Assembly (NCBI GenBank): GCA_046760145.1
Contig: JBHIDO010000002.1
Span: 1-58,086, forward strand
Length of the DNA stretch: 58,086 nt
Source of the DNA: Candidatus Aenigmatarchaeota archaeon
Lineage (GTDB): Archaea > Aenigmatarchaeota > Aenigmatarchaeia > Aenigmatarchaeales > Aenigmatarchaeaceae
Direction: 5' to 3'
The first letter of the stretch is position 1. Each line of letters starts with the position of its first letter. Below, piece after piece: positions 1,469 through 34,581 of this stretch. The translations under genes were made by a program, and so were the position numbers. Under the pieces are notes generated by a model, which made no database searches, was not told the DNA's origin, and saw only the letters and a program-made list of their open reading frames with translations.

Positions 1469-2833
1469 ATGTTAAGAAATGTTTTAGAGAAAATAAGACC
1501 TTCTAAAGAAGAAAAGAATAAGATGAAGAACTTTGCTGAAAGGGTTTTAAAAATATCTAAAATAATTCTGAAAGAATCTGCAAAACCTTTATTATGTGGA
1601 TCAGTTGCCAAAGGAACTTGGATATCAAATAAAAATGAATTAGATTTGTTTTTGTTATTTAGTCCAGCAACTTCTAGAAAAGATTTAGAAAAAAAGGGAT
1701 TAGACTTTGCAAAAAATATAATAAAAAAACTTAAAGGTAAGTATGAAATTGCATATGCTGAACATCCCTATCTTAGAGGGTGGGTTGGGAAATATCAAAT
1801 TGACATAGTTCCTTGTTACTCAATAGAAGACCCTGAAAAAATAAAATCTGCAGTAGACAGAACCCCCCATCATGTAAAATATGTAATTAATAATCTGAAA
1901 AATCCTGATGAAGTTATGTTATTAAAGCAGTTTTGTGAAGCAAATGAATGTTATGGAGCTGATGTTAAAACTCAAGGATTTTCTGGATACCTTTGTGAAT
2001 TATTAATAATATATTATAAAAGTTTTGAGAATTGTATAAAAAAGGCCTCTAAATGGAGGGCAGGAACTTTAATTACATTTGATAAAATAGATAAAGAATT
2101 TGCATTAAAAAAATTCAGAACTCCATTAATAACAATAGATCCTGTTGATAAAAATAGAAATGTTGCAGCAGCTGTTTCAATAGAAACATTCTATAGATTT
2201 GTCAAAGCTTGTAATGATTTTCTTAAAAATAAGAAAATGAAGTTTTTCTTTCCTGAAAAAATAAAACCCTATTCAATTCAAGAAATATCAAAGGAAATAA
2301 AGAAAAGAGGAACTCGTTGGTATTTGATAAAGTTCAAAAGACCTGATGTAATCGATGATACTTTATATCCTCAATTAAGAAGATGTATAAAATCTTTAGA
2401 AAAGATTTTAAAAGAAAATGGATTTAGAGTCTTTAGAAAAGATTTTTGGTGTAATGATATTTGTGTTCTAGTTTTTGAAATGGATATATGGCAAGTTCCA
2501 AAGATATCTAAACATATTGGACCAAATGTCTTTAGTAGACATGCAGAAGAATTTCTAAAGCATTATAAACAATATAGAATTTTTATTGATGGTGAAAACT
2601 GGGTTGTTGAAAAAGAAAGAAAATTCCAAACAGTTCTTCCTTTGCTAAAGAATCTTATTAGAAGATCTAATAAAGAATTATTAGAAAGTGGTATTCCAAA
2701 TAAAATAGTGTCACAATTTAGAAAAGCTAGAGTTTATTCTGGAGGAGAATCAGTAAAGGTTATTTCTAAATTGCCAAAAGAATTTAAGGTATTTATGCGT
2801 AAATGGTTTGAGAAAGATTTGAATGTTATTTAA
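1469..2833 (+). CDS. cca: CCA-adding enzyme (archaeal class I tRNA nucleotidyltransferase)
   Basis: GSVAKGTWISNKNELDLFLLF nucleotidyltransferase motif, AEHPYLRG, DIVPCY, RTPHHV; 454 aa. Confidence 0.9.
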   Translation: MLRNVLEKIRPSKEEKNKMKNFAERVLKISKIILKESAKPLLCGSVAKGTWISNKNELDLFLLFSPATSRKDLEKKGLDFAKNIIKKLKGKYEIAYAEHPYLRGWVGKYQIDIVPCYSIEDPEKIKSAVDRTPHHVKYVINNLKNPDEVMLLKQFCEANECYGADVKTQGFSGYLCELLIIYYKSFENCIKKASKWRAGTLITFDKIDKEFALKKFRTPLITIDPVDKNRNVAAAVSIETFYRFVKACNDFLKNKKMKFFFPEKIKPYSIQEISKEIKKRGTRWYLIKFKRPDVIDDTLYPQLRRCIKSLEKILKENGFRVFRKDFWCNDICVLVFEMDIWQVPKISKHIGPNVFSRHAEEFLKHYKQYRIFIDGENWVVEKERKFQTVLPLLKNLIRRSNKELLESGIPNKIVSQFRKARVYSGGESVKVISKLPKEFKVFMRKWFEKDLNVI

Positions 2834-2954
2834 TCTTATATGCTGAACCCTGATAGACTGTAGGTTCTATTGAAGTATCACATCCCATGTAATTGTAGTA
2901 TTCTTCCCAGCTACAATCCAAATCAAGTGCAGATCCATCTTTACATTCAGGCAT
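2826..2954 (-). CDS. Possible 42-aa acidic Cys-containing small protein (MPECKDGSALDLDCSWEEYYNYMGCDTSIEPTVYQGSAYKIK)
   Basis: ATG preceded by AGTGATAACA (GTGAT SD-like) and a TTATATAG box. It lies in an otherwise empty 180-nt spacer and is not in the ORF track because it is under 60 aa. No recognisable family. Confidence 0.25.
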   Translation of the reverse strand: MPECKDGSALDLDCSWEEYYNYMGCDTSIEPTVYQGSAYKIK

Positions 2955-3013
2955 TGTTATCACTATATAATAGTTAAATTATACTAATATATAAAGCTAA
3001 CTATTTTATTAAC

Positions 3014-3907
3014 ATGCCTGAACCAATAAATATAATTTTTTTAGGAACAGGAGCTGCCGTTCCAAGCCTGAAAAGACATCACCCAGCGATTTTATTACGT
3101 TATGGACCTGATTATATTCTTTGGGATTGTGGAGAAGGAACGCAATTAAGACTAGAAAAAGCCAAAGTTTCTCCATTAAAGATTTCTAAAATATTTATAA
3201 CTCATTGGCATGCTGATCATTTTGCAGGATTACTACCATTAATAGAAACATTACATATTTCAAGAAGAGAAAAACCTTTAGAAATTTATGGTCCTGAAGC
3301 TTCTAGATTTGTTGATGATTTAATAGAATTAAGCTATTGGGGAATTGGATTTGGATTAACCCCAATAAATTGTGGGAAAAAAGATATAGAAAAAATCTTT
3401 GAAACAGAGGGATATGAAATCTATTCGTTAAAGGTTAAACACTCTGTCCCTGCTGTTGGATATTGTTTTAAAGAAAAAGATCACTGGAAAATAGATGTTA
3501 ATAAAGCAAAGAAATTTGGATTAGTTGGAAAACAATTAAAAGAAATTAAAAGAAAGGGAAAATTGAAGATGAAAAATAAAATTATTAAAATAAGTGATAT
3601 TGCAAGATTAATTAAAGGTAGAAAAATTGTTTATTCTGGAGATACAATACCTTGTAAGAATTTATTTGAGTTCTCTAAAGAAGCAGATTTATTAATACAT
3701 GATGCAACATTTATAGAAGAATTTCCAGAAAGACCACATTCATCTGCAATAGAAATAGCAAAACTATCAAAAAAATATAAAATAAAAAAATTAATATTGA
3801 CACATTTAAGTAGGAGGTATAGAACCTCCAAAGAAATTTTAAATGTAGTTAAACCAATTTTTAAGAATGTGAGAATTGCTGAAGATTTAATGAGAGTGAA
3901 ATTATGA
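3014..3907 (+). CDS. rnz: Ribonuclease Z (tRNA 3' endonuclease)
   Basis: Metallo-beta-lactamase HxHxDH motif (ITHWHADH); short-form length of 297 aa. Confidence 0.9.
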   Translation: MPEPINIIFLGTGAAVPSLKRHHPAILLRYGPDYILWDCGEGTQLRLEKAKVSPLKISKIFITHWHADHFAGLLPLIETLHISRREKPLEIYGPEASRFVDDLIELSYWGIGFGLTPINCGKKDIEKIFETEGYEIYSLKVKHSVPAVGYCFKEKDHWKIDVNKAKKFGLVGKQLKEIKRKGKLKMKNKIIKISDIARLIKGRKIVYSGDTIPCKNLFEFSKEADLLIHDATFIEEFPERPHSSAIEIAKLSKKYKIKKLILTHLSRRYRTSKEILNVVKPIFKNVRIAEDLMRVKL

Positions 3908-6090: not shown

Positions 6091-6094
6091 ACAT

Positions 6095-6104
6095 TTTTAT
6101 AAAT
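6095..6104 (+). promoter_or_regulatory. TATA-like box upstream of tRNA-Lys(CUU)
   Basis: TTTTTATAAA lies 22-31 nt upstream of tRNA position 1 (6126), the usual archaeal spacing. Confidence 0.45.
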
Positions 6105-6148
6105 TCCTTTCTTTAATTCTAAATTGGGCCCATAGCTCAGTCTGGTAG

Positions 6149-6822
6149 AAAGGAGGAACAAAAATGATTAATAAAGATGTAGCAGAATTGGTTGGCGTAC
6201 ATCTGGGAGATGGACGTATGTCCCATTATTTTGCTAGATCTGAGGATATCTTTAGATTTGAAATTTTGTTCACAGGAGATTGGGACAAAGACTCTAGATA
6301 TTATAAAGAAGTTTTACAACCCATAGTAATTAGAAACTTTGGAATTAAAGGTCATATAAAACATAGAAGAGACGATGATACAGTTAGATACGTGATTAAA
6401 AGCAAGAAACTTGCAACGTTTTTTGTACGACTTGAAATACCTGTTGGGAAAAAAGCAGAGATATGTAAAATACCCTCTGAAGTAATTTGTGACATAGATT
6501 TATCTATCGCTTGTATTAGAGGTATTTTCAATAGTGACGGCAGTATTTATAGAAGATATAATAAACGTTATAAAAATACGCCTGAAGACTATTACAAATA
6601 TGCAGTTGTACAGTTCAAAATGAAAAGCAAAGATTTGATTAAGCAAATAAAAGACGTTTTGAATAGCCTCCATATTAGAACAACTAAAATAAGCAGAAAC
6701 TGTAATAGTTGGGTATTAAGAATAACGCATCAGAAATCTATTGACATCTTTTTTGATTTATTTAAAATAAACCACAATTATCACTTGAAAAGGTATAATG
6801 ATATTCGTTCCTCTTTGCCAAA
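6149..6822 (+). mobile_element. ORF-bearing bulge-helix-bulge (BHB) intron of tRNA-Lys(CUU)
   Basis: A 10-bp intron helix pairs AAGGAGGAAC (6150-6159) with GTTCCTCTTT (6807-6816). A 4-bp central helix pairs TGGT (6143-6146) with GCCA (6817-6820). It is flanked by 3-nt bulges AG|A (6147-6149) and AA|A (6821-6823). The exon-side outer helix is weak. Confidence 0.8.
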
Positions 6823-6838
6823 AGCAACTGGCTCTTAA
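6164..6838 (+). CDS. Double-motif LAGLIDADG homing endonuclease-like protein (intron-encoded)
   Basis: Motif 1 is LVGVHLGDGRM and motif 2 is CIRGIFNSDGSIY. A GGAGG SD lies 8 nt upstream of the ATG. The last 5 codons and the TAA lie in the 3' exon; the TAA is anticodon-loop positions 36-38. Confidence 0.85.
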   Translation: MINKDVAELVGVHLGDGRMSHYFARSEDIFRFEILFTGDWDKDSRYYKEVLQPIVIRNFGIKGHIKHRRDDDTVRYVIKSKKLATFFVRLEIPVGKKAEICKIPSEVICDIDLSIACIRGIFNSDGSIYRRYNKRYKNTPEDYYKYAVVQFKMKSKDLIKQIKDVLNSLHIRTTKISRNCNSWVLRITHQKSIDIFFDLFKINHNYHLKRYNDIRSSLPKATGS

Positions 6839-6909
6839 CCAGTAGGTCGCGGGTTCGAATCCCGTTGGGCCCACCAATCTTTTTAAAGAACATTCAACAT
6901 AATTTAGTT

Positions 6910-26406: not shown

Positions 26407-26453
26407 AAAAACACTTGGTGCGGCCGCTGGGATTTGAACCCAGGTCATCAGCT

Positions 26454-26467
26454 TTCTTCATAGTCTA
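26454..26467 (-). other. tRNA-Gly intron 2 (14 nt, canonical 37/38)
   Basis: TAGACTATGAAGAA. The central helix pairs CTTC (positions 32-35) with GAAG, and the bulges are CA|T and AA|A. Confidence 0.8.
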
Positions 26468-26475
26468 TGGAAGGC

Positions 26476-26492
26476 TTACCCACATAAATGTT
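26476..26492 (-). other. tRNA-Gly intron 1 (17 nt, position 29/30)
   Basis: AACATTTATGTGGGTAA. The central helix pairs ACCT with GGGT, the bulges are CA|A and AA|G, and 3-bp helices lie on both sides. Confidence 0.8.
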
Positions 26493-26508
26493 TGAGGTCC
26501 TAACCAGA

Positions 26509-27360
26509 CTAGACTACGGCCGCATTATCAAATAATTTCAATAGTTTCTCTATTTCTTGATTATTGAACATTGCTAGTGCCCAAGAGTTCATAGTTCTAT
26601 CTGGATATATTTTAGCTTTGATATTTGCCTTATTTAAGATATCAAGAACGTCCTTTAAAAGTATTTTAGTACTCTGTTTTATTGCTAGTGTTCTTCTACC
26701 ATCTTTACGCATACTTAATGAACCATCAGAATCGTAAAGACCACGTATAAAATTTATCTGAAGTAATAGTGGAGCATCTTTTATAATTTTCGGAACTCGT
26801 ATATTATTCTTTTTCTTTCCTTCTGGTAAATCAAATACATACATCAAAAATTGTTTAATAGGAATTGAGGTAAAGGATAGAACAGAATAATTCCTGTAGT
26901 TTATAATTTTAGATTCAACATTGAAGGTATTATCAACTATAGTTTTTATTACTCTTAAATCTTTACTTGATATTGTAATAGTAGCTCTTTCAGTTGTAAT
27001 TCCACCATCACCAATAATAACACCTATTAAGTAAGCTAATTTATTATTTAATCTTCTTGGTAATTGTATTATTTTACCATTTCTAGAAGAAAATCCACTC
27101 ATTATTTTGTATGCTTCATCAATATATTTTGTATTTGATAGTCTTTTACATAAATAAATAAAATTTCTAATTGAAATTGGAGTAGATTTCTTCCATTTGT
27201 AAATAAGTGATTTATGTACACTAAGTTCTTTAGATAAATCTGAAATAGAAATTTTTAACTTTAACATTTCTAAGATTTCAGAAACTAGAGATGTTATCCC
27301 ATGAATGTAAATATTTTGATTTGTTTTTCCTAGTTTTATTAAATAATTTCTTATTTCCAT
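26509..27360 (-). CDS. LAGLIDADG homing endonuclease-like protein with an N-terminal HTH extension
   Basis: HTH-like ISISDLSKELSVHKSLIYKWKK; motif 1 LIGVIIGDGGI; motif 2 FIRGLYDSDGSL. The last 5 codons and the TAG (GCG GCC GTA GTC TAG) are positions 1-15 of tRNA-Gly. Confidence 0.85.
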   Translation of the reverse strand: MEIRNYLIKLGKTNQNIYIHGITSLVSEILEMLKLKISISDLSKELSVHKSLIYKWKKSTPISIRNFIYLCKRLSNTKYIDEAYKIMSGFSSRNGKIIQLPRRLNNKLAYLIGVIIGDGGITTERATITISSKDLRVIKTIVDNTFNVESKIINYRNYSVLSFTSIPIKQFLMYVFDLPEGKKKNNIRVPKIIKDAPLLLQINFIRGLYDSDGSLSMRKDGRRTLAIKQSTKILLKDVLDILNKANIKAKIYPDRTMNSWALAMFNNQEIEKLLKLFDNAAVV

Positions 27361-27406: not shown

Positions 27407-27802
27407 TTAAAAAGACTCTCTTATTTTTCTAGCAATATTTTTCATTTCTTCATCAGATAATTTTTTAACATTCTCTACATTAATTGATCCTCCATGTCCA
27501 TCATTCGAAAATCTAGGAACTAACCAAATATGTGCATGTTCTACTTCTTCTCCAAATATCATCGAAACAACCCATTCTGTATTAAAAGCTTTCCTAATTG
27601 CATTTGCAATTTTACTTACAACTTCGAAATATTCTCCAACATTTGGTACATCCCAAACCCATCTATAATGCTTTTTTGGAATAACCATTGTGTGTCCTGG
27701 ATTTAATGGTCTTATATCTAGAAATGCTAAAAAATTATCACTCTCATAAACTTTATAACTAGGTATTTCTCCCTTTACAATTTTACAAAATATACAATTC
27801 AT
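27407..27802 (-). CDS. HIT family (histidine triad) nucleotide hydrolase
   Basis: CIFCKIV N-terminus, FLDIRPLNPGHTMVIPKKH, and the HAHIWLVPR histidine triad. The start is trimmed to 27802 because the upstream part of the ORF is tRNA-Trp. Confidence 0.9.
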   Translation of the reverse strand: MNCIFCKIVKGEIPSYKVYESDNFLAFLDIRPLNPGHTMVIPKKHYRWVWDVPNVGEYFEVVSKIANAIRKAFNTEWVVSMIFGEEVEHAHIWLVPRFSNDGHGGSINVENVKKLSDEEMKNIARKIRESF

Positions 27803-27851
27803 GTTATCACCAATGGTGGGGTCGCCCGGATTCGAACCGGGATCAGCTGGT

Positions 27852-27918
27852 ATCACCATGGCACCAGAGCCACATACCAACTTTTTTATCATCTTTTCAT
27901 CAAAGCTCCAGCAAAATT
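27852..27918 (-). other. tRNA-Trp intron 2 (67 nt, 37/38)
   Basis: A near-canonical BHB. CTCC (32-35) pairs with GGTG with one T-T mismatch, and the bulges are AG|A and AT|A. It contains a perfect TGATGA. Confidence 0.6.
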
Positions 27919-27953
27919 CTGGAGCCAGCCATCTTAACCTGGTTGGACCACGA

Positions 27954-27971
27954 TTCTGGTTTTAAAAAAAT
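27954..27971 (-). other. tRNA-Trp intron 1 (18 nt, position 4/5 in the acceptor stem)
   Basis: ATTTTTTTAAAACCAGAA. The central helix pairs CTGG with CCAG, and the bulges are GG|A and AA|T. The inner helix pairs TTTT with AAAA. A 7-bp outer helix pairs leader GACCATG (27978-27984) with CGTGGTC (27946-27952). Confidence 0.8.
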
Positions 27972-27989
27972 CCCCAGCATGGTCGCCCT

Positions 27990-28727
27990 TCAACGACCCC
28001 ATTTTATTAATTTATTCCTTTTATTTATATTATTAAAACCTATTTGTTCTTTATATGATTCCAAACTCTTTGTCTTTATGTCAAAAACTAAACCTTTGGT
28101 TTTATAACCGTCTTTTCTTAGATTACCATTGATTATCCAGGTTTTTGTAGTTTCTATGTTAAATCTTTTAAGCATATCCTTCATATCTTTCATAAATAAT
28201 TTTCCATTTTCTAATTTTTCTTCAATCTTATGTAATTTAAATCTTATTTTCATTCTATTTGGTTCTTTCCAAATACTACCCTCACAATCAAATGCGATTT
28301 TTAAATATAATCTAGCAAATTCTAGATTATTTTTTATCCATGTTGGAACTAAAAATGTTTGTTTTACTTTACTTCCTGTTGGAGTATCCAAAAGTTTTAG
28401 AATTCTAGAAATTGGAGCAGAAATTATTCTATATTCGTAACATGTCCCAAAATTACTTTTTATTTTTCTATATTTTCCAATTAAATTAAATTCTTTTTTA
28501 ACCAATCTTTCAATTTCTTTCAACTCAGATAATAGAGAGCTAGTAAATAGAAATGCCTTTTCAGATAAGTATAGATGCCCATTAAAAGTTAAAAATGAAA
28601 TAATCTTTACTAGATCCTCATTTCCATAAATAGGAAAATTAATTTTATATTTTTCCATTGATTTTAATGCAAATTTCTTAAGTTTATATGAATTAAGAAA
28701 TTGTGTTTTAGTTAATATTGGCTTCAT
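27990..28727 (-). CDS. LAGLIDADG homing endonuclease-like protein (first motif degenerate)
   Basis: Motif 1 is ISFLTFNGHLY, with Asn where the catalytic Asp is expected. Motif 2 is YLKIAFDCEGSIW. It shares the PTGSK...VP linker with the other three. Its stop region GGGGTCGTTGA copies the first 8 nt of mature tRNA-Trp. Confidence 0.75.
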   Translation of the reverse strand: MKPILTKTQFLNSYKLKKFALKSMEKYKINFPIYGNEDLVKIISFLTFNGHLYLSEKAFLFTSSLLSELKEIERLVKKEFNLIGKYRKIKSNFGTCYEYRIISAPISRILKLLDTPTGSKVKQTFLVPTWIKNNLEFARLYLKIAFDCEGSIWKEPNRMKIRFKLHKIEEKLENGKLFMKDMKDMLKRFNIETTKTWIINGNLRKDGYKTKGLVFDIKTKSLESYKEQIGFNNINKRNKLIKWGR

Positions 28728-31629: not shown

Positions 31630-31669
31630 TTTATCACCTGGTGCCTGGGGTGGGATTTGAACCCACGAC

Positions 31670-31697
31670 TTCTAGCCTCTTTTTTGTATTTAGAGGT
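31670..31697 (-). other. tRNA(CAU) intron 3 (28 nt, 45/46 in the variable loop)
   Basis: The central helix pairs CTAG with CTAG, the bulges are AG|A and AA|G, and the intron helix pairs CCTCT with AGAGG. Removal creates the variable loop AGGTC. Confidence 0.75.
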
Positions 31698-31705
31698 CTC
31701 TAGAT

Positions 31706-31759
31706 CTCTCAGCTGACTAAGTTTTCAGTCATGCCTTAAGGTCATAACTCATAACAACT
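31706..31759 (-). other. tRNA(CAU) intron 2 (54 nt, canonical 37/38)
   Basis: The central helix pairs CTCA (32-35) with TGAG, and the bulges are TA|A and AG|A. It is flanked by the 5-bp anticodon stem CTAGA/TCTAG and the intron helix GTTG/CAGC. Confidence 0.8.
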
Positions 31760-31766
31760 TATGAGT

Positions 31767-31779
31767 TTCGCCAATTTTT
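31767..31779 (-). other. tRNA(CAU) intron 1 (13 nt, 30/31)
   Basis: AAAAATTGGCGAA. The central helix pairs CGCT with GGCG, the bulges are AG|A and AA|A, and the exon helix pairs GAG with CTC. Confidence 0.8.
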
Positions 31780-31787
31780 CTAGCGCT

Positions 31788-32411
31788 CTAACCAGCTGAG
31801 CCACCCAGGCTCATTTTTTCATTCAACCAATTTTTATATTTTGTTTGATGTTTAGGATTTATAAATCCTACCTCTTTATAAAATATTTTGGTATTTCTAT
31901 ATCCATTAAATTGTAGACGTGTGAATTTTGGATATAAACCGCCTTTCATACCAATACTTTCTAATTTTTGTTTTATTTGTTCTAATAATGGAATAGAAAT
32001 ACTTCTAAATTCTATTCTTGGATACATTATACCATTATTATTAGTAATAACTAGAGAACCATCAGTTGCAAAAATTCCGGATATAATATCTTTCTCTAAA
32101 TTATGATCGAAGAATATTTTAGGAATAGATATATTTTTCTTTTTACCAACAGGAAAGCCCAAAGATTTTATGTACTCAAAAAGTTCTTTATCAGAGAAAT
32201 TTATTTCTATTTTCCCATGTTTGGACCTTTTCTTATATACAACTTTCTTTTTTCTAATCTTAGCCAAAATTGGGATAACTATCTTGTCAAAGAAAGGTTG
32301 GTCATTATAATAATTACAGGTTATAACTATGGCTCTTGCTCTAGAATATCTAGAGAGACAACCATCACCAATTAGTATTCCATAAAGATTTGCTAAATCT
32401 TTGTTAATCAT
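31788..32411 (-). CDS. Double-motif LAGLIDADG homing endonuclease-like protein
   Basis: Motif 1 is LYGILIGDGCL and motif 2 is IISGIFATDGSL. Its N-terminus MINKDLANL parallels the intron-encoded paralog. Its last 7 codons and the TAG are positions 1-23 of the tRNA(CAU). Its start overlaps the DUF362 stop. Confidence 0.85.
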   Translation of the reverse strand: MINKDLANLYGILIGDGCLSRYSRARAIVITCNYYNDQPFFDKIVIPILAKIRKKKVVYKKRSKHGKIEINFSDKELFEYIKSLGFPVGKKKNISIPKIFFDHNLEKDIISGIFATDGSLVITNNNGIMYPRIEFRSISIPLLEQIKQKLESIGMKGGLYPKFTRLQFNGYRNTKIFYKEVGFINPKHQTKYKNWLNEKMSLGGSAG

Positions 32412-33222: not shown

Positions 33223-33376
33223 TGGTGGGCCCGACGGGATTCGAACCCGCGACTCCCGGGTTTAAAGACCGAGACTAACAGTCTGCAGGTTTTCTTCCTG
33301 TCATTGCTAAAAGCTCAACATGCTTTTATCCTGACGGATAAAAGCCCGGTACTCTACCAGACTGAGTTACGGGCCC
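33223..33376 (-). tRNA. tRNA-Lys (probably UUU) with a 77-nt insertion in the anticodon loop; splice junctions unresolved; CCA encoded
   Basis: GGGCCCG TA ACTC AGTCTGGTA GAGT A CCGGG CTTTTA [77 nt] A CCCGG GAGTC GCGGG TTCGAAT CCCGT CGGGCCC A CCA. All four arms pair perfectly. Confidence 0.7.
33262..33338 (-). other. Intervening sequence of tRNA-Lys(UUU), drawn at 37/38; no BHB found by eye
   Basis: It begins with a perfect 10-bp hairpin GCTTTTATCC-GTCA-GGATAAAAGC (33322-33345) that buries the anticodon loop. It ends in ...CTCGGTCTTTAA. Confidence 0.5.
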
Positions 33377-34385: not shown

Positions 34386-34468
34386 AATAAAATATTAAAT
34401 TTCTTATATTTATTAAGTTTCCCCTTTTAGCACACATCTCTAAGGTTGGTAAGAATAAAGTTTAAAAA

Positions 34469-34581
34469 TCGCCAGCGTCCTGGGCTTCCCGTGTTTTCCA
34501 CAGTACAACCCAGATCGATGGAGCGATTCACTACCGTGTTCGAATGGGAACGGGTCTTTCCACTCCTCTTTGACCGGCGAC
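34469..34581 (-). rRNA. 5S ribosomal RNA (free-standing)
   Basis: On the minus strand, TCGCCGG...CCCGTTCCCATTCGAACACGGTAGTGAATCGC...GGGAAGCCCAGGACGCTGGCGA. The terminal helix pairs TCGCCGG with CTGGCGA. It is a GC-rich island in AT-rich DNA. The ends are accurate to a few nt. Confidence 0.85.

Follow-up and report, generated by a model that had tools for sequence, protein, structure and literature searches.

How the numerous non-canonical introns of archaeal tRNA genes are acquired, lost and moved has long been an open question. Among the ideas put forward are that introns transpose and that they protect against integrating elements (PMC4090602, PMC3488258), but no engine of mobility has been named. 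The locus described here raises the question in a concrete form, as a tRNA gene whose intron carries an endonuclease gene of its own. It lies in a stretch of 58,086 nucleotides (nt) from a Candidatus Aenigmatarchaeota archaeon (assembly GCA_046760145.1, contig JBHIDO010000002.1, positions 1-58,086), hereafter called the window. We conclude that the locus is likely a single transcription unit for tRNA-Lys(CUU), the D-arm of which is split by a protein-spliced bulge-helix-bulge (BHB) intron housing a LAGLIDADG gene. The best explanation of this intron appears to be a mobile tRNA intron that depends on a splicing endonuclease for its removal.

The locus is built from the following parts, among them an open reading frame (ORF) that spans almost the entire intron:

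6094..6105, + strand: putative promoter, a TATA-like box TTTTTATAAATT, read from the sequence.
6126..6148, + strand: 5' exon, comprising the 5' strand of the acceptor, the 5' strand of the D-stem, the D-loop and G22 (ARAGORN on the spliced sequence, with spliced alignment in agreement).
6149..6822, + strand: intron of 674 nt at Sprinzl position 22/23, with a 15-nt leader and then coding sequence to its last base (sequence; ARAGORN).
6164..6838, + strand: ORF of 224 amino acids (aa), a double-motif LAGLIDADG homing endonuclease by Pfam, AlphaFold2 and Foldseek.
6823..6876, + strand: 3' exon from A23 to the discriminator base, plus CCA (partial Rfam match; ARAGORN on the spliced sequence).
6880..6884, + strand: putative terminator, a T5 run straight after the tRNA, read from the sequence.

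The two exons, GGGCCCATAGCTCAGTCTGGTAG and AGCAACTGG...GGGCCCACCA, make a cloverleaf only when joined. The original prediction had claimed as much, with the break at 22/23, and had proposed ARAGORN as a check; both the claim and the check hold up, as the program calls tRNA-Lys(ctt) on the joined exons (77 nt including the CCA encoded in the genome at 6874-6876) and calls nothing on the unspliced DNA of the locus, in which Rfam picks up the 3' part of the gene only (6817-6865, 29.1 bits). In the spliced tRNA, as drawn by ARAGORN, the acceptor is paired in 7/7 positions, the D-stem is GCTC/GAGC, the anticodon loop CTCTTAA and the T-loop TTCGAAT. Numbering of the D-loop (A14...U17a G18 G19 U20 A21) puts the break between G22 and A23, with an ambiguity of 1 nt, since cuts at 6148/6823 and 6149/6824 lead to identical products. 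The predicted spliced junction reads ...GGTAG^AGCAAC..., and that of a circular intron would read ...GCCAA^AAAGGAGG. The TATA-like box, judged by the archaeal rule for promoter spacing, has its centre ~27 nt 5' of tRNA position 1.

The ORF starts 15 nt into the intron and leaves no trailer, so that 659 of the 674 intron nucleotides are coding. Its last five codons and its stop codon (TAA, 6836-6838) sit in the 3' exon, where the TAA forms positions 36-38 of the anticodon loop; in a circularised intron the stop would come seven codons past the junction. An intron-encoded LAGLIDADG endonuclease, as first proposed, is confirmed by Pfam and by the structural model, but the gene is not fully intronic. 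Both PF14528 and PF00961 match the product (LAGLIDADG_3 at E 2.9e-10, also LAGLIDADG_1), and there is a weak WhiA-type match. The two motifs read LVGVHLGDG and IRGIFNSDG; catalytic D16 is conserved in at least 90% of the family and D125 is invariant across it. The AlphaFold2 model (predicted local distance difference test score, pLDDT, 91; predicted template modelling score, pTM, 0.88) has the pseudo-dimeric alpha-beta-beta-alpha-beta-beta-alpha fold of LAGLIDADG enzymes with a disordered exon-encoded tail, and its best Foldseek match is I-Tsp061I (2dch, E 5.7e-12, template modelling score 0.72-0.79), with further matches to PI-PfuI, the intein-associated TliVMA endonuclease and many I-DmoI entries (probability 1.00); I-DmoI was also found by a profile search of PDB sequences. 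As far as motifs and model can tell, the product is a two-motif LAGLIDADG homing endonuclease, and site-specific cleavage of DNA is its predicted activity. A phage or viral origin of the gene was rejected, as tblastn against 50,697 phage records gave no match.

Around the splice sites, the ends of the intron and the D-loop can be arranged into two helices and two bulges:

6143..6146, + strand: central BHB helix, 5' strand TGGT, exon sequence (D-loop), pairing with 6817-6820 (locus comparison).
6147..6149, + strand: bulge of the 5' splice site, AG^A (AGN in 11/11 loci).
6150..6159, + strand: intron-closing helix, 5' strand AAGGAGGAAC, pairing with 6807-6816 (covariation).
6807..6816, + strand: intron-closing helix, 3' strand GTTCCTCTTT, within the ORF (locus comparison; covariation).
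6817..6820, + strand: central helix, 3' strand GCCA, intron sequence that codes for part of the C-terminal tail 'PKA' (locus comparison).
6821..6823, + strand: bulge of the 3' splice site, AA^A (AAA, TAA or TCA in all loci).

With TGGT/GCCA held between two 3-nt bulges, the window junction has the BHB layout, and removal of the intron restores the tRNA. The intron-closing helix, AAGGAGGAAC/GTTCCTCTTT, is 10 base pairs (bp) long with one G-U, and a Shine-Dalgarno-like GGAGG (6152-6156) is embedded in it ahead of the ORF start. The predicted cut falls after nucleotide 2 of each bulge, and the 5' exon pairs with the 3' end of the intron to make the central helix; in both respects the window intron resembles a canonical archaeal pre-tRNA. 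In the minimum-energy fold of the 751-nt precursor (z = -3.35) the acceptor, anticodon and T arms are kept and the intron ends are zipped together, so that the predicted structure retains the cloverleaf and has the intron as an outgrowth of the D-arm. The reading of this structure as a substrate of the splicing endonuclease is supported by the canonical geometry, by covariation across loci and by the absence of a group I/II signal.

The covariation comes from relatives of the endonuclease. A word-index search returned 11 of them at 38-50% identity, and an exhaustive profile search 51 representatives at E < 1e-30, within the broad LAGLIDADG_3 superfamily; named sources are Micrarchaeota, Nanoarchaeia and unclassified archaeal metagenome-assembled genomes. 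We examined the DNA of 40 loci, 22 of which are non-redundant and have enough flank; L013/L030, L019, L035, L037 and L040 gave no information on the flank, as their contigs stop inside or just past the ORF. Intron borders were set by hand, since spliced alignment to one reference tRNA is noisy at exon ends, and checked with ARAGORN, which confirmed tRNA-Lys(ctt) in 19/20 hand-spliced relatives; the hand-set splice of L031 was off by one base. At 22/22 loci the endonuclease gene lies in or beside tRNA-Lys(CUU), in three main arrangements and two odd ones:

Arrangement A (6 loci): ORF inside the 22/23 intron, in the window, L004, L007, L012, L014 and L015.
Arrangement B (6 loci): free-standing ORF just upstream of the tRNA gene, which has an ORF-less 22/23 intron, in L016 (36 nt), L017 (30 nt), L018 (17 nt), L028 (35 nt), L036 (15 nt) and L038 (32 nt).
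Arrangement C (8 loci): free-standing ORF upstream of a tRNA gene that has an uninterrupted D-arm and an intron in the anticodon stem (5' strand) at 30/31 (28/29 in L020), in L001, L009, L010, L020, L025, L033, L034 and L039.
Odd: L031, with the tRNA convergent with the endonuclease gene.
Odd: L026, with a full tRNA-Lys ahead of the ORF and, behind it, a duplicated 3' tRNA fragment starting from the anticodon-loop TAA.

The 22/23 site is therefore polymorphic, with an ORF-bearing intron in six loci, an ORF-less one in six and no intron in at least eight. The search for an intronless allele in related genomes, as suggested with the original prediction, was answered in part by these empty sites; a wholly uninterrupted endonuclease-linked gene was found in none of the loci. 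In the endonuclease-linked tRNA-Lys(CUU) genes, to which this tally is confined, exactly one of the two sites, 22/23 or ~30/31, is occupied by an intron in each case.

The junction has the same architecture in the window and in 10 more independent loci. Of these 11 loci with a 22/23 intron, 10 form all four central pairs, and L018, whose endonuclease is decayed, forms two of the four. Covariation was scored over nine of the 11, drawn from arrangements A and B. In this alignment 100% of the cells of the central helix are paired, the whole junction model reaches 94.4% of cells paired compared to 76.7% in shuffles (0/500 shuffles reach the observed pairing), and in the intron-closing helix 8/8 scored pairs change on both sides. 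When the partners are slid by 1-3 columns as a control, pairing drops to 31-55%. Mini-introns of 15-36 nt at 22/23 (L036, L016, L017, L028, L038) hold little beyond the junction motif; that of L036 reads TGGT AG^A GG GAAA CC GCCA AA^A GC. Because these introns consist of little else, the motif itself must, on such a comparison, be the splicing signal, a conserved functional unit.

The neighbour-joining tree of the endonucleases (100 bootstraps) contains three clades with 100% support, one of intron-borne copies (L004, L007, L012, L014), one with L013, L016, L017 and L028, and one with L001, L009 and L010. The window and L015, both of arrangement A, fall outside the first of these and group weakly with the third (55%), which places intron-borne copies in at least two parts of the tree. 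Membership of the window endonuclease in the main intron-borne clade was rejected, given that this clade has its full support without the window. Endonucleases of L018, L020 and L026 are decayed, with one in-frame stop each. Repeated entry into or exit from the intron, and the presence of decaying copies, would fit the life cycle of a selfish endonuclease.

Other features of the relatives are recorded here in their own right. At L026 (1278-2189) the tRNA-Lys(CUU) is complete, with 30/31 and T-loop introns, and precedes the endonuclease copy with its in-frame stop; the duplicated 3' fragment has the look of a scar left by the replacement of an intron-bearing allele. In relatives, tRNA-Lys(CUU) genes have up to three introns each, with additional small ones at 9/10 and in the T-loop:

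Further small introns: L009 2191-2220; L010 2068-2098; L015 ~671-697; L039 ~454-492.

We suggest that the locus would work as follows. A 751-nt precursor would be transcribed from the tRNA promoter (TATA-like box, 6094-6105), and its intron ends would pair through the 10-bp helix and TGGT/GCCA, exposing both splice sites in the 3-nt bulges. The tRNA-splicing endonuclease of the host, presumably a broad-specificity EndA, would cut the bulges, and an RtcB-type ligase would join the exons into a normal tRNA. By analogy, a precedent for the splicing of such a relaxed BHB may be found in the Micrarchaeum lineage, where the broad-specificity epsilon2 splicing endonuclease cuts relaxed BHB motifs at non-canonical sites (PMC3488258). 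The homing endonuclease might be translated from the precursor, with the ORF entering the 3' exon and stopping at the TAA of the anticodon loop, or from the excised circular intron, with the stop seven codons past the junction. It would then cleave those tRNA-Lys(CUU) genes in which the region of positions 22-31 is uninterrupted, and repair from the intron-bearing copy would spread the intron by homing. Introns at 22/23 or 30/31 would serve as self-protection, an immunity for which the presence of one or the other in every endonuclease-linked tRNA-Lys gene is circumstantial evidence. The RNA species that is translated, the cleavage of DNA and its target, and the present mobility of the intron are predictions that we draw from the sequence.

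Several points weigh against such an account. T6 runs inside the intron (6419-6424 and 6749-6754) may stop archaeal transcription early. The bulges, the TGGT/GCCA helix and the 10-bp helix described by the original prediction all stand, and the motif appears to be a relaxed one: the exon-side pairs G10-C25 and C11-G24 of the D-stem are parted from the central helix by six unpaired D-loop nucleotides, and as the 3' bulge faces these in an internal loop the exon-side helix is not contiguous, which fits the relaxed (HBh'-type) kind of junction better than the strict hBHBh' kind. In the window alone an alternative 6-bp register, TGGTAG/TTGCCA with an AAA bulge, is possible, although comparison across loci favours the 4-bp one. 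We infer RNA splicing and its 6148/6823 junction from DNA. The D-arm sequence is common to many tRNAs, and for this reason the specificity of the endonuclease must come from the flanks. Deep nodes of the tree have bootstrap values of 9-55%. Finally, an uninterrupted tRNA-Lys(CUU) elsewhere, combined with a lack of expression from this locus, had been named from the outset as evidence that would speak against the idea; no second tRNA-Lys(CUU) gene was found within the 58-kb window, an absence that holds for these 58 kb only, and such a gene may exist in the rest of the genome, outside the view.

The surroundings of the locus bear on the alternatives as well. The window has 29% G+C and encodes L37e, RpoH, RpoB and RpoA', the last of which is 73-74% identical to Aenigmatarchaeota and Nanoarchaeota sequences; by its encoded proteins the host is a DPANN archaeon. 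Other tRNAs of the window are Leu-GAG, Thr-UGU, Asp-GUC, Tyr-GUA, Lys-UUU (33226-33376), a CAU tRNA, Gly-UCC and one further multi-intron tRNA. Three more LAGLIDADG_3 ORFs are present, each running into the 5' end of an intron-rich tRNA gene, and genes of the larger family to which the first of them belongs were found in other genomes:

31788-32411, - strand: LAGLIDADG_3 ORF of 207 aa, family-profile E 3.8e-27, running into tRNA(CAU) at 31642-31810 (-).
26509-27360, - strand: LAGLIDADG_3 ORF of 283 aa with an N-terminal extension, running into tRNA-Gly(UCC) at 26419-26523 (-).
27990-28727, - strand: LAGLIDADG-like ORF of 245 aa with a degenerate first motif (FNGH), running into a multi-intron tRNA at ~27812-28003 (-).
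L042, 1042-1821: larger-family endonuclease gene, tRNA divergent, 62 nt off.
L044, 1009-1818: larger-family endonuclease gene, tRNA upstream on the same strand, 68 nt off.

The tRNA(CAU) and tRNA-Gly(UCC) genes each have an anticodon-stem intron of the arrangement-C type. The family of the 31788-32411 ORF is DPANN-wide (254 matches), and two arbitrary members lie <70 nt from intron-bearing tRNA genes, on different sides and strands; in this larger family adjacency to a tRNA gene appears to be conserved and orientation is not.

At a finer scale, the last codons of the 31788-32411 ORF (..SLGGSAG*) are the 5' end of tRNA(CAU) with the D-loop TAG as stop, and the anticodon-stem intron of this tRNA ends in GGCGAA^A, like that of arrangement-C tRNA-Lys genes. 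The 26509-27360 ORF (..AAVV*) stops within the first 15 nt of a tRNA with two introns, at ~29/30 and 37/38, which we read as Gly(UCC). The 27990-28727 ORF ends at GGGGTCG, and this sequence matches the 3' end ...CGACCCCACCA of a multi-intron tRNA missed by every tool. A tmRNA-like Rfam match (27814-28060) was rejected, being the T-arm, acceptor and CCA end of this same tRNA. The called start of a HIT-family ORF (27407-27892) is probably wrong, because its N-terminus 'GSNPGDP' is translated tRNA sequence. A 3' CCA encoded in the genome, uncommon in archaea, was seen in several of these tRNA genes (window 6874-6876 and ~27812-27814; L036 ~2257-2259). The tRNA-rich stretch at 26-34 kb, with four tRNA and three endonuclease genes, also holds a 5S rRNA gene (34467-34581, -, Rfam 71 bits). 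Phage-type integrase genes lie directly downstream of endonuclease-linked tRNA genes at L012 (1842-2768) and L044 (~2600-3018), and such tRNA genes may therefore also be integration sites for other mobile elements.

With four LAGLIDADG ORFs in 58 kb, each touching an intron-rich tRNA gene, it could be asked whether the protein has been domesticated, either as a regulator or as a factor that assists intron-rich pre-tRNAs in the manner of a maturase or chaperone, the host enzyme still splicing and the ORF being kept for the benefit of the host. LAGLIDADG maturases and the WhiA regulator are precedents for domesticated proteins of this type, the two arbitrary members of the larger family are likewise <70 nt from tRNA genes, and intact ORFs have been kept in lineages with copies 36-48% identical to that of the window. 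We nevertheless consider domestication unlikely: the catalytic Asp of both motifs is conserved, decayed copies exist, the position and orientation of the gene relative to the tRNA vary (L031 convergent, L042 divergent, L044 downstream), no need for a maturase is known in BHB splicing, and the nearest structures are true homing enzymes. It is highly unlikely that insertion of the endonuclease gene simply inactivated tRNA-Lys(CUU), with no splicing and AAG decoded by another tRNA. Such a dead gene would agree with the presence of tRNA-Lys(UUU) at 33226-33376 and with the internal T6 runs, but the exons are flawless, they are intact in six genomes with endonucleases 37-47% identical to that of the window, the junction helices covary, and other genomes have an ORF-less 22/23 intron in their only visible tRNA-Lys(CUU), which could not function unless the intron were removed.

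Two further alternatives concern the way in which the exons are brought together. A split tRNA gene, with halves transcribed apart and joined in trans and the ORF as an independent gene between them, is scarcely credible here. The halves lie 674 nt apart in collinear order on one strand, the 3' exon is overlapped by the ORF and has no promoter-like gap ahead of it, and the ORF-less versions are ordinary cis introns. In favour of this alternative, tRNA genes that are split or permuted are known from Nanoarchaeota and from other archaea (PMC4033280). As for a self-splicing group I (or II) intron with a homing endonuclease, Rfam models of group I/II introns gave no match on the locus at the gathering score or even at E <= 10, and there is no room for a ribozyme core, since 659 of 674 nt are coding. 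For this lack of a model match and of non-coding space the candidate was rejected, and we hold it to be extremely unlikely. Homologous introns at 22/23 are merely 15-36 nt long. The window intron is in the D-arm and not in the anticodon loop, the location of group I introns in bacterial tRNA genes. What could be said for a group I intron is that those with LAGLIDADG ORFs occur in archaea (PMC6125680), and that bacterial tRNA genes are classic group I hosts (PMC3984707).

The protein-spliced, endonuclease-bearing intron that we prefer to these alternatives has parallels in several known systems. Endonuclease-bearing BHB introns have been described for archaeal rRNA genes, with hairpin-only introns and decayed copies at the same loci (PMC4496867), in agreement with the earlier remark that ORF-bearing BHB introns are known from crenarchaeal rRNA genes. 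Those of I-DmoI (Desulfurococcus 23S), I-Tsp061I (Thermoproteus 16S) and Pyrobaculum 16S combine a protein-spliced BHB with a double-motif LAGLIDADG enzyme, as the window appears to do, and their short and decayed companions have counterparts among the tRNA-Lys relatives. In contrast to them, the host gene in the window is a tRNA gene and the host organism a DPANN archaeon, not a member of Thermoproteota; the ORF fills its intron (15-nt leader, no trailer) and ends inside the 3' exon; free-standing sister genes adjoin the target tRNA gene; and sequence identity to I-DmoI and I-Tsp061I is 18-20%. In Pyrobaculum oguniense, an endonuclease BHB intron lies 8 nt from a mini-intron site, and its enzyme cuts the neighbouring site with co-conversion (Pog.S1213/Pog.S1205, PMC4496867). 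Sites 22/23 and 30/31 of tRNA-Lys are likewise 8 nt apart but, unlike that pair, are never occupied together, and are known as genomic arrangements alone.

To our knowledge the largest non-canonical archaeal tRNA introns are of the order of 100 nt. Those of Thermoproteales, Thaumarchaeota, Micrarchaeum ARMAN-2 and Asgard resemble the present ones in their relaxed BHB motifs away from the anticodon loop and in occurring several per gene, and they depend on broad-specificity splicing endonucleases (PMC3488258, PMC8450103, PMC11291895). However, in the sources consulted they are described with neither an ORF nor an engine of mobility, whereas the window intron has 674 nt and its own endonuclease. 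Arrangement B (L016, L017, L018, L028, L036, L038), though not the window itself, has the layout of collaborative homing, known from F-CphI at the phage psbA group I intron, where the endonuclease gene is free-standing and adjoins a gene whose ORF-less intron, placed at the cut site, protects that gene and hitch-hikes (PMC6083498). There the intron is a group I ribozyme, the enzyme Endo VII-like, the host a phage protein gene and cleavage at the intron site demonstrated; here the intron is a BHB, the enzyme a LAGLIDADG protein, the host a cellular tRNA gene and cleavage a prediction. The tRNA-Lys loci also include natural examples of the composite end state, in which the intron contains the ORF. 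Group I introns of bacterial tRNA genes, some of which encode homing endonucleases (PMC3984707), likewise place a mobile intron and an endonuclease gene in a tRNA gene, but are self-splicing ribozymes, and no ribozyme was found in the window intron.

The archaeal tRNA-intron reviews consulted and the tRNAscan-SE 2.0 paper make no mention of homing endonucleases in tRNA introns, and a full-text search of the openly accessible literature found no endonuclease-bearing archaeal tRNA intron, although an earlier description is possible. The statement that archaeal tRNA introns are normally without an ORF, on which the novelty of the locus depends, survives this search. What appears to be new is that a homing-endonuclease BHB intron occupies a tRNA gene, that the hosts belong to DPANN, and that there are sister states in which the endonuclease gene is free-standing or the intron lacks an ORF; the kind of intron was already known from rRNA.

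As a tentative extension, which we consider possible though short of probable, tRNA-targeting LAGLIDADG endonucleases may be the engine behind the origin and spread of the non-canonical tRNA introns of DPANN. At 22/23 or 30/31, small BHB introns would then be immunity devices that break the recognition site of the adjoining endonuclease gene, and would hitch-hike with the endonuclease by collaborative homing, the window being the fused end state.

There are practical consequences too. Genes of this class are missed by standard tRNA finders, as ARAGORN and Rfam fail on the window gene, and ORFs that enter tRNA genes lead to mis-annotation of neighbouring genes. The endonuclease family also provides a compact set of new meganuclease scaffolds with guessable natural targets. 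For the biology of these archaea, the mobility of tRNA introns becomes testable, since several DPANN phyla share a homing endonuclease that is physically linked to a single tRNA gene and occurs in three arrangements. If endonucleases of this kind are indeed the engine, the three arrangements would represent a natural series for the formation of mobile introns, as proposed for group I introns but now with protein splicing, and the same logic would hold for several tRNA species in the same genome.

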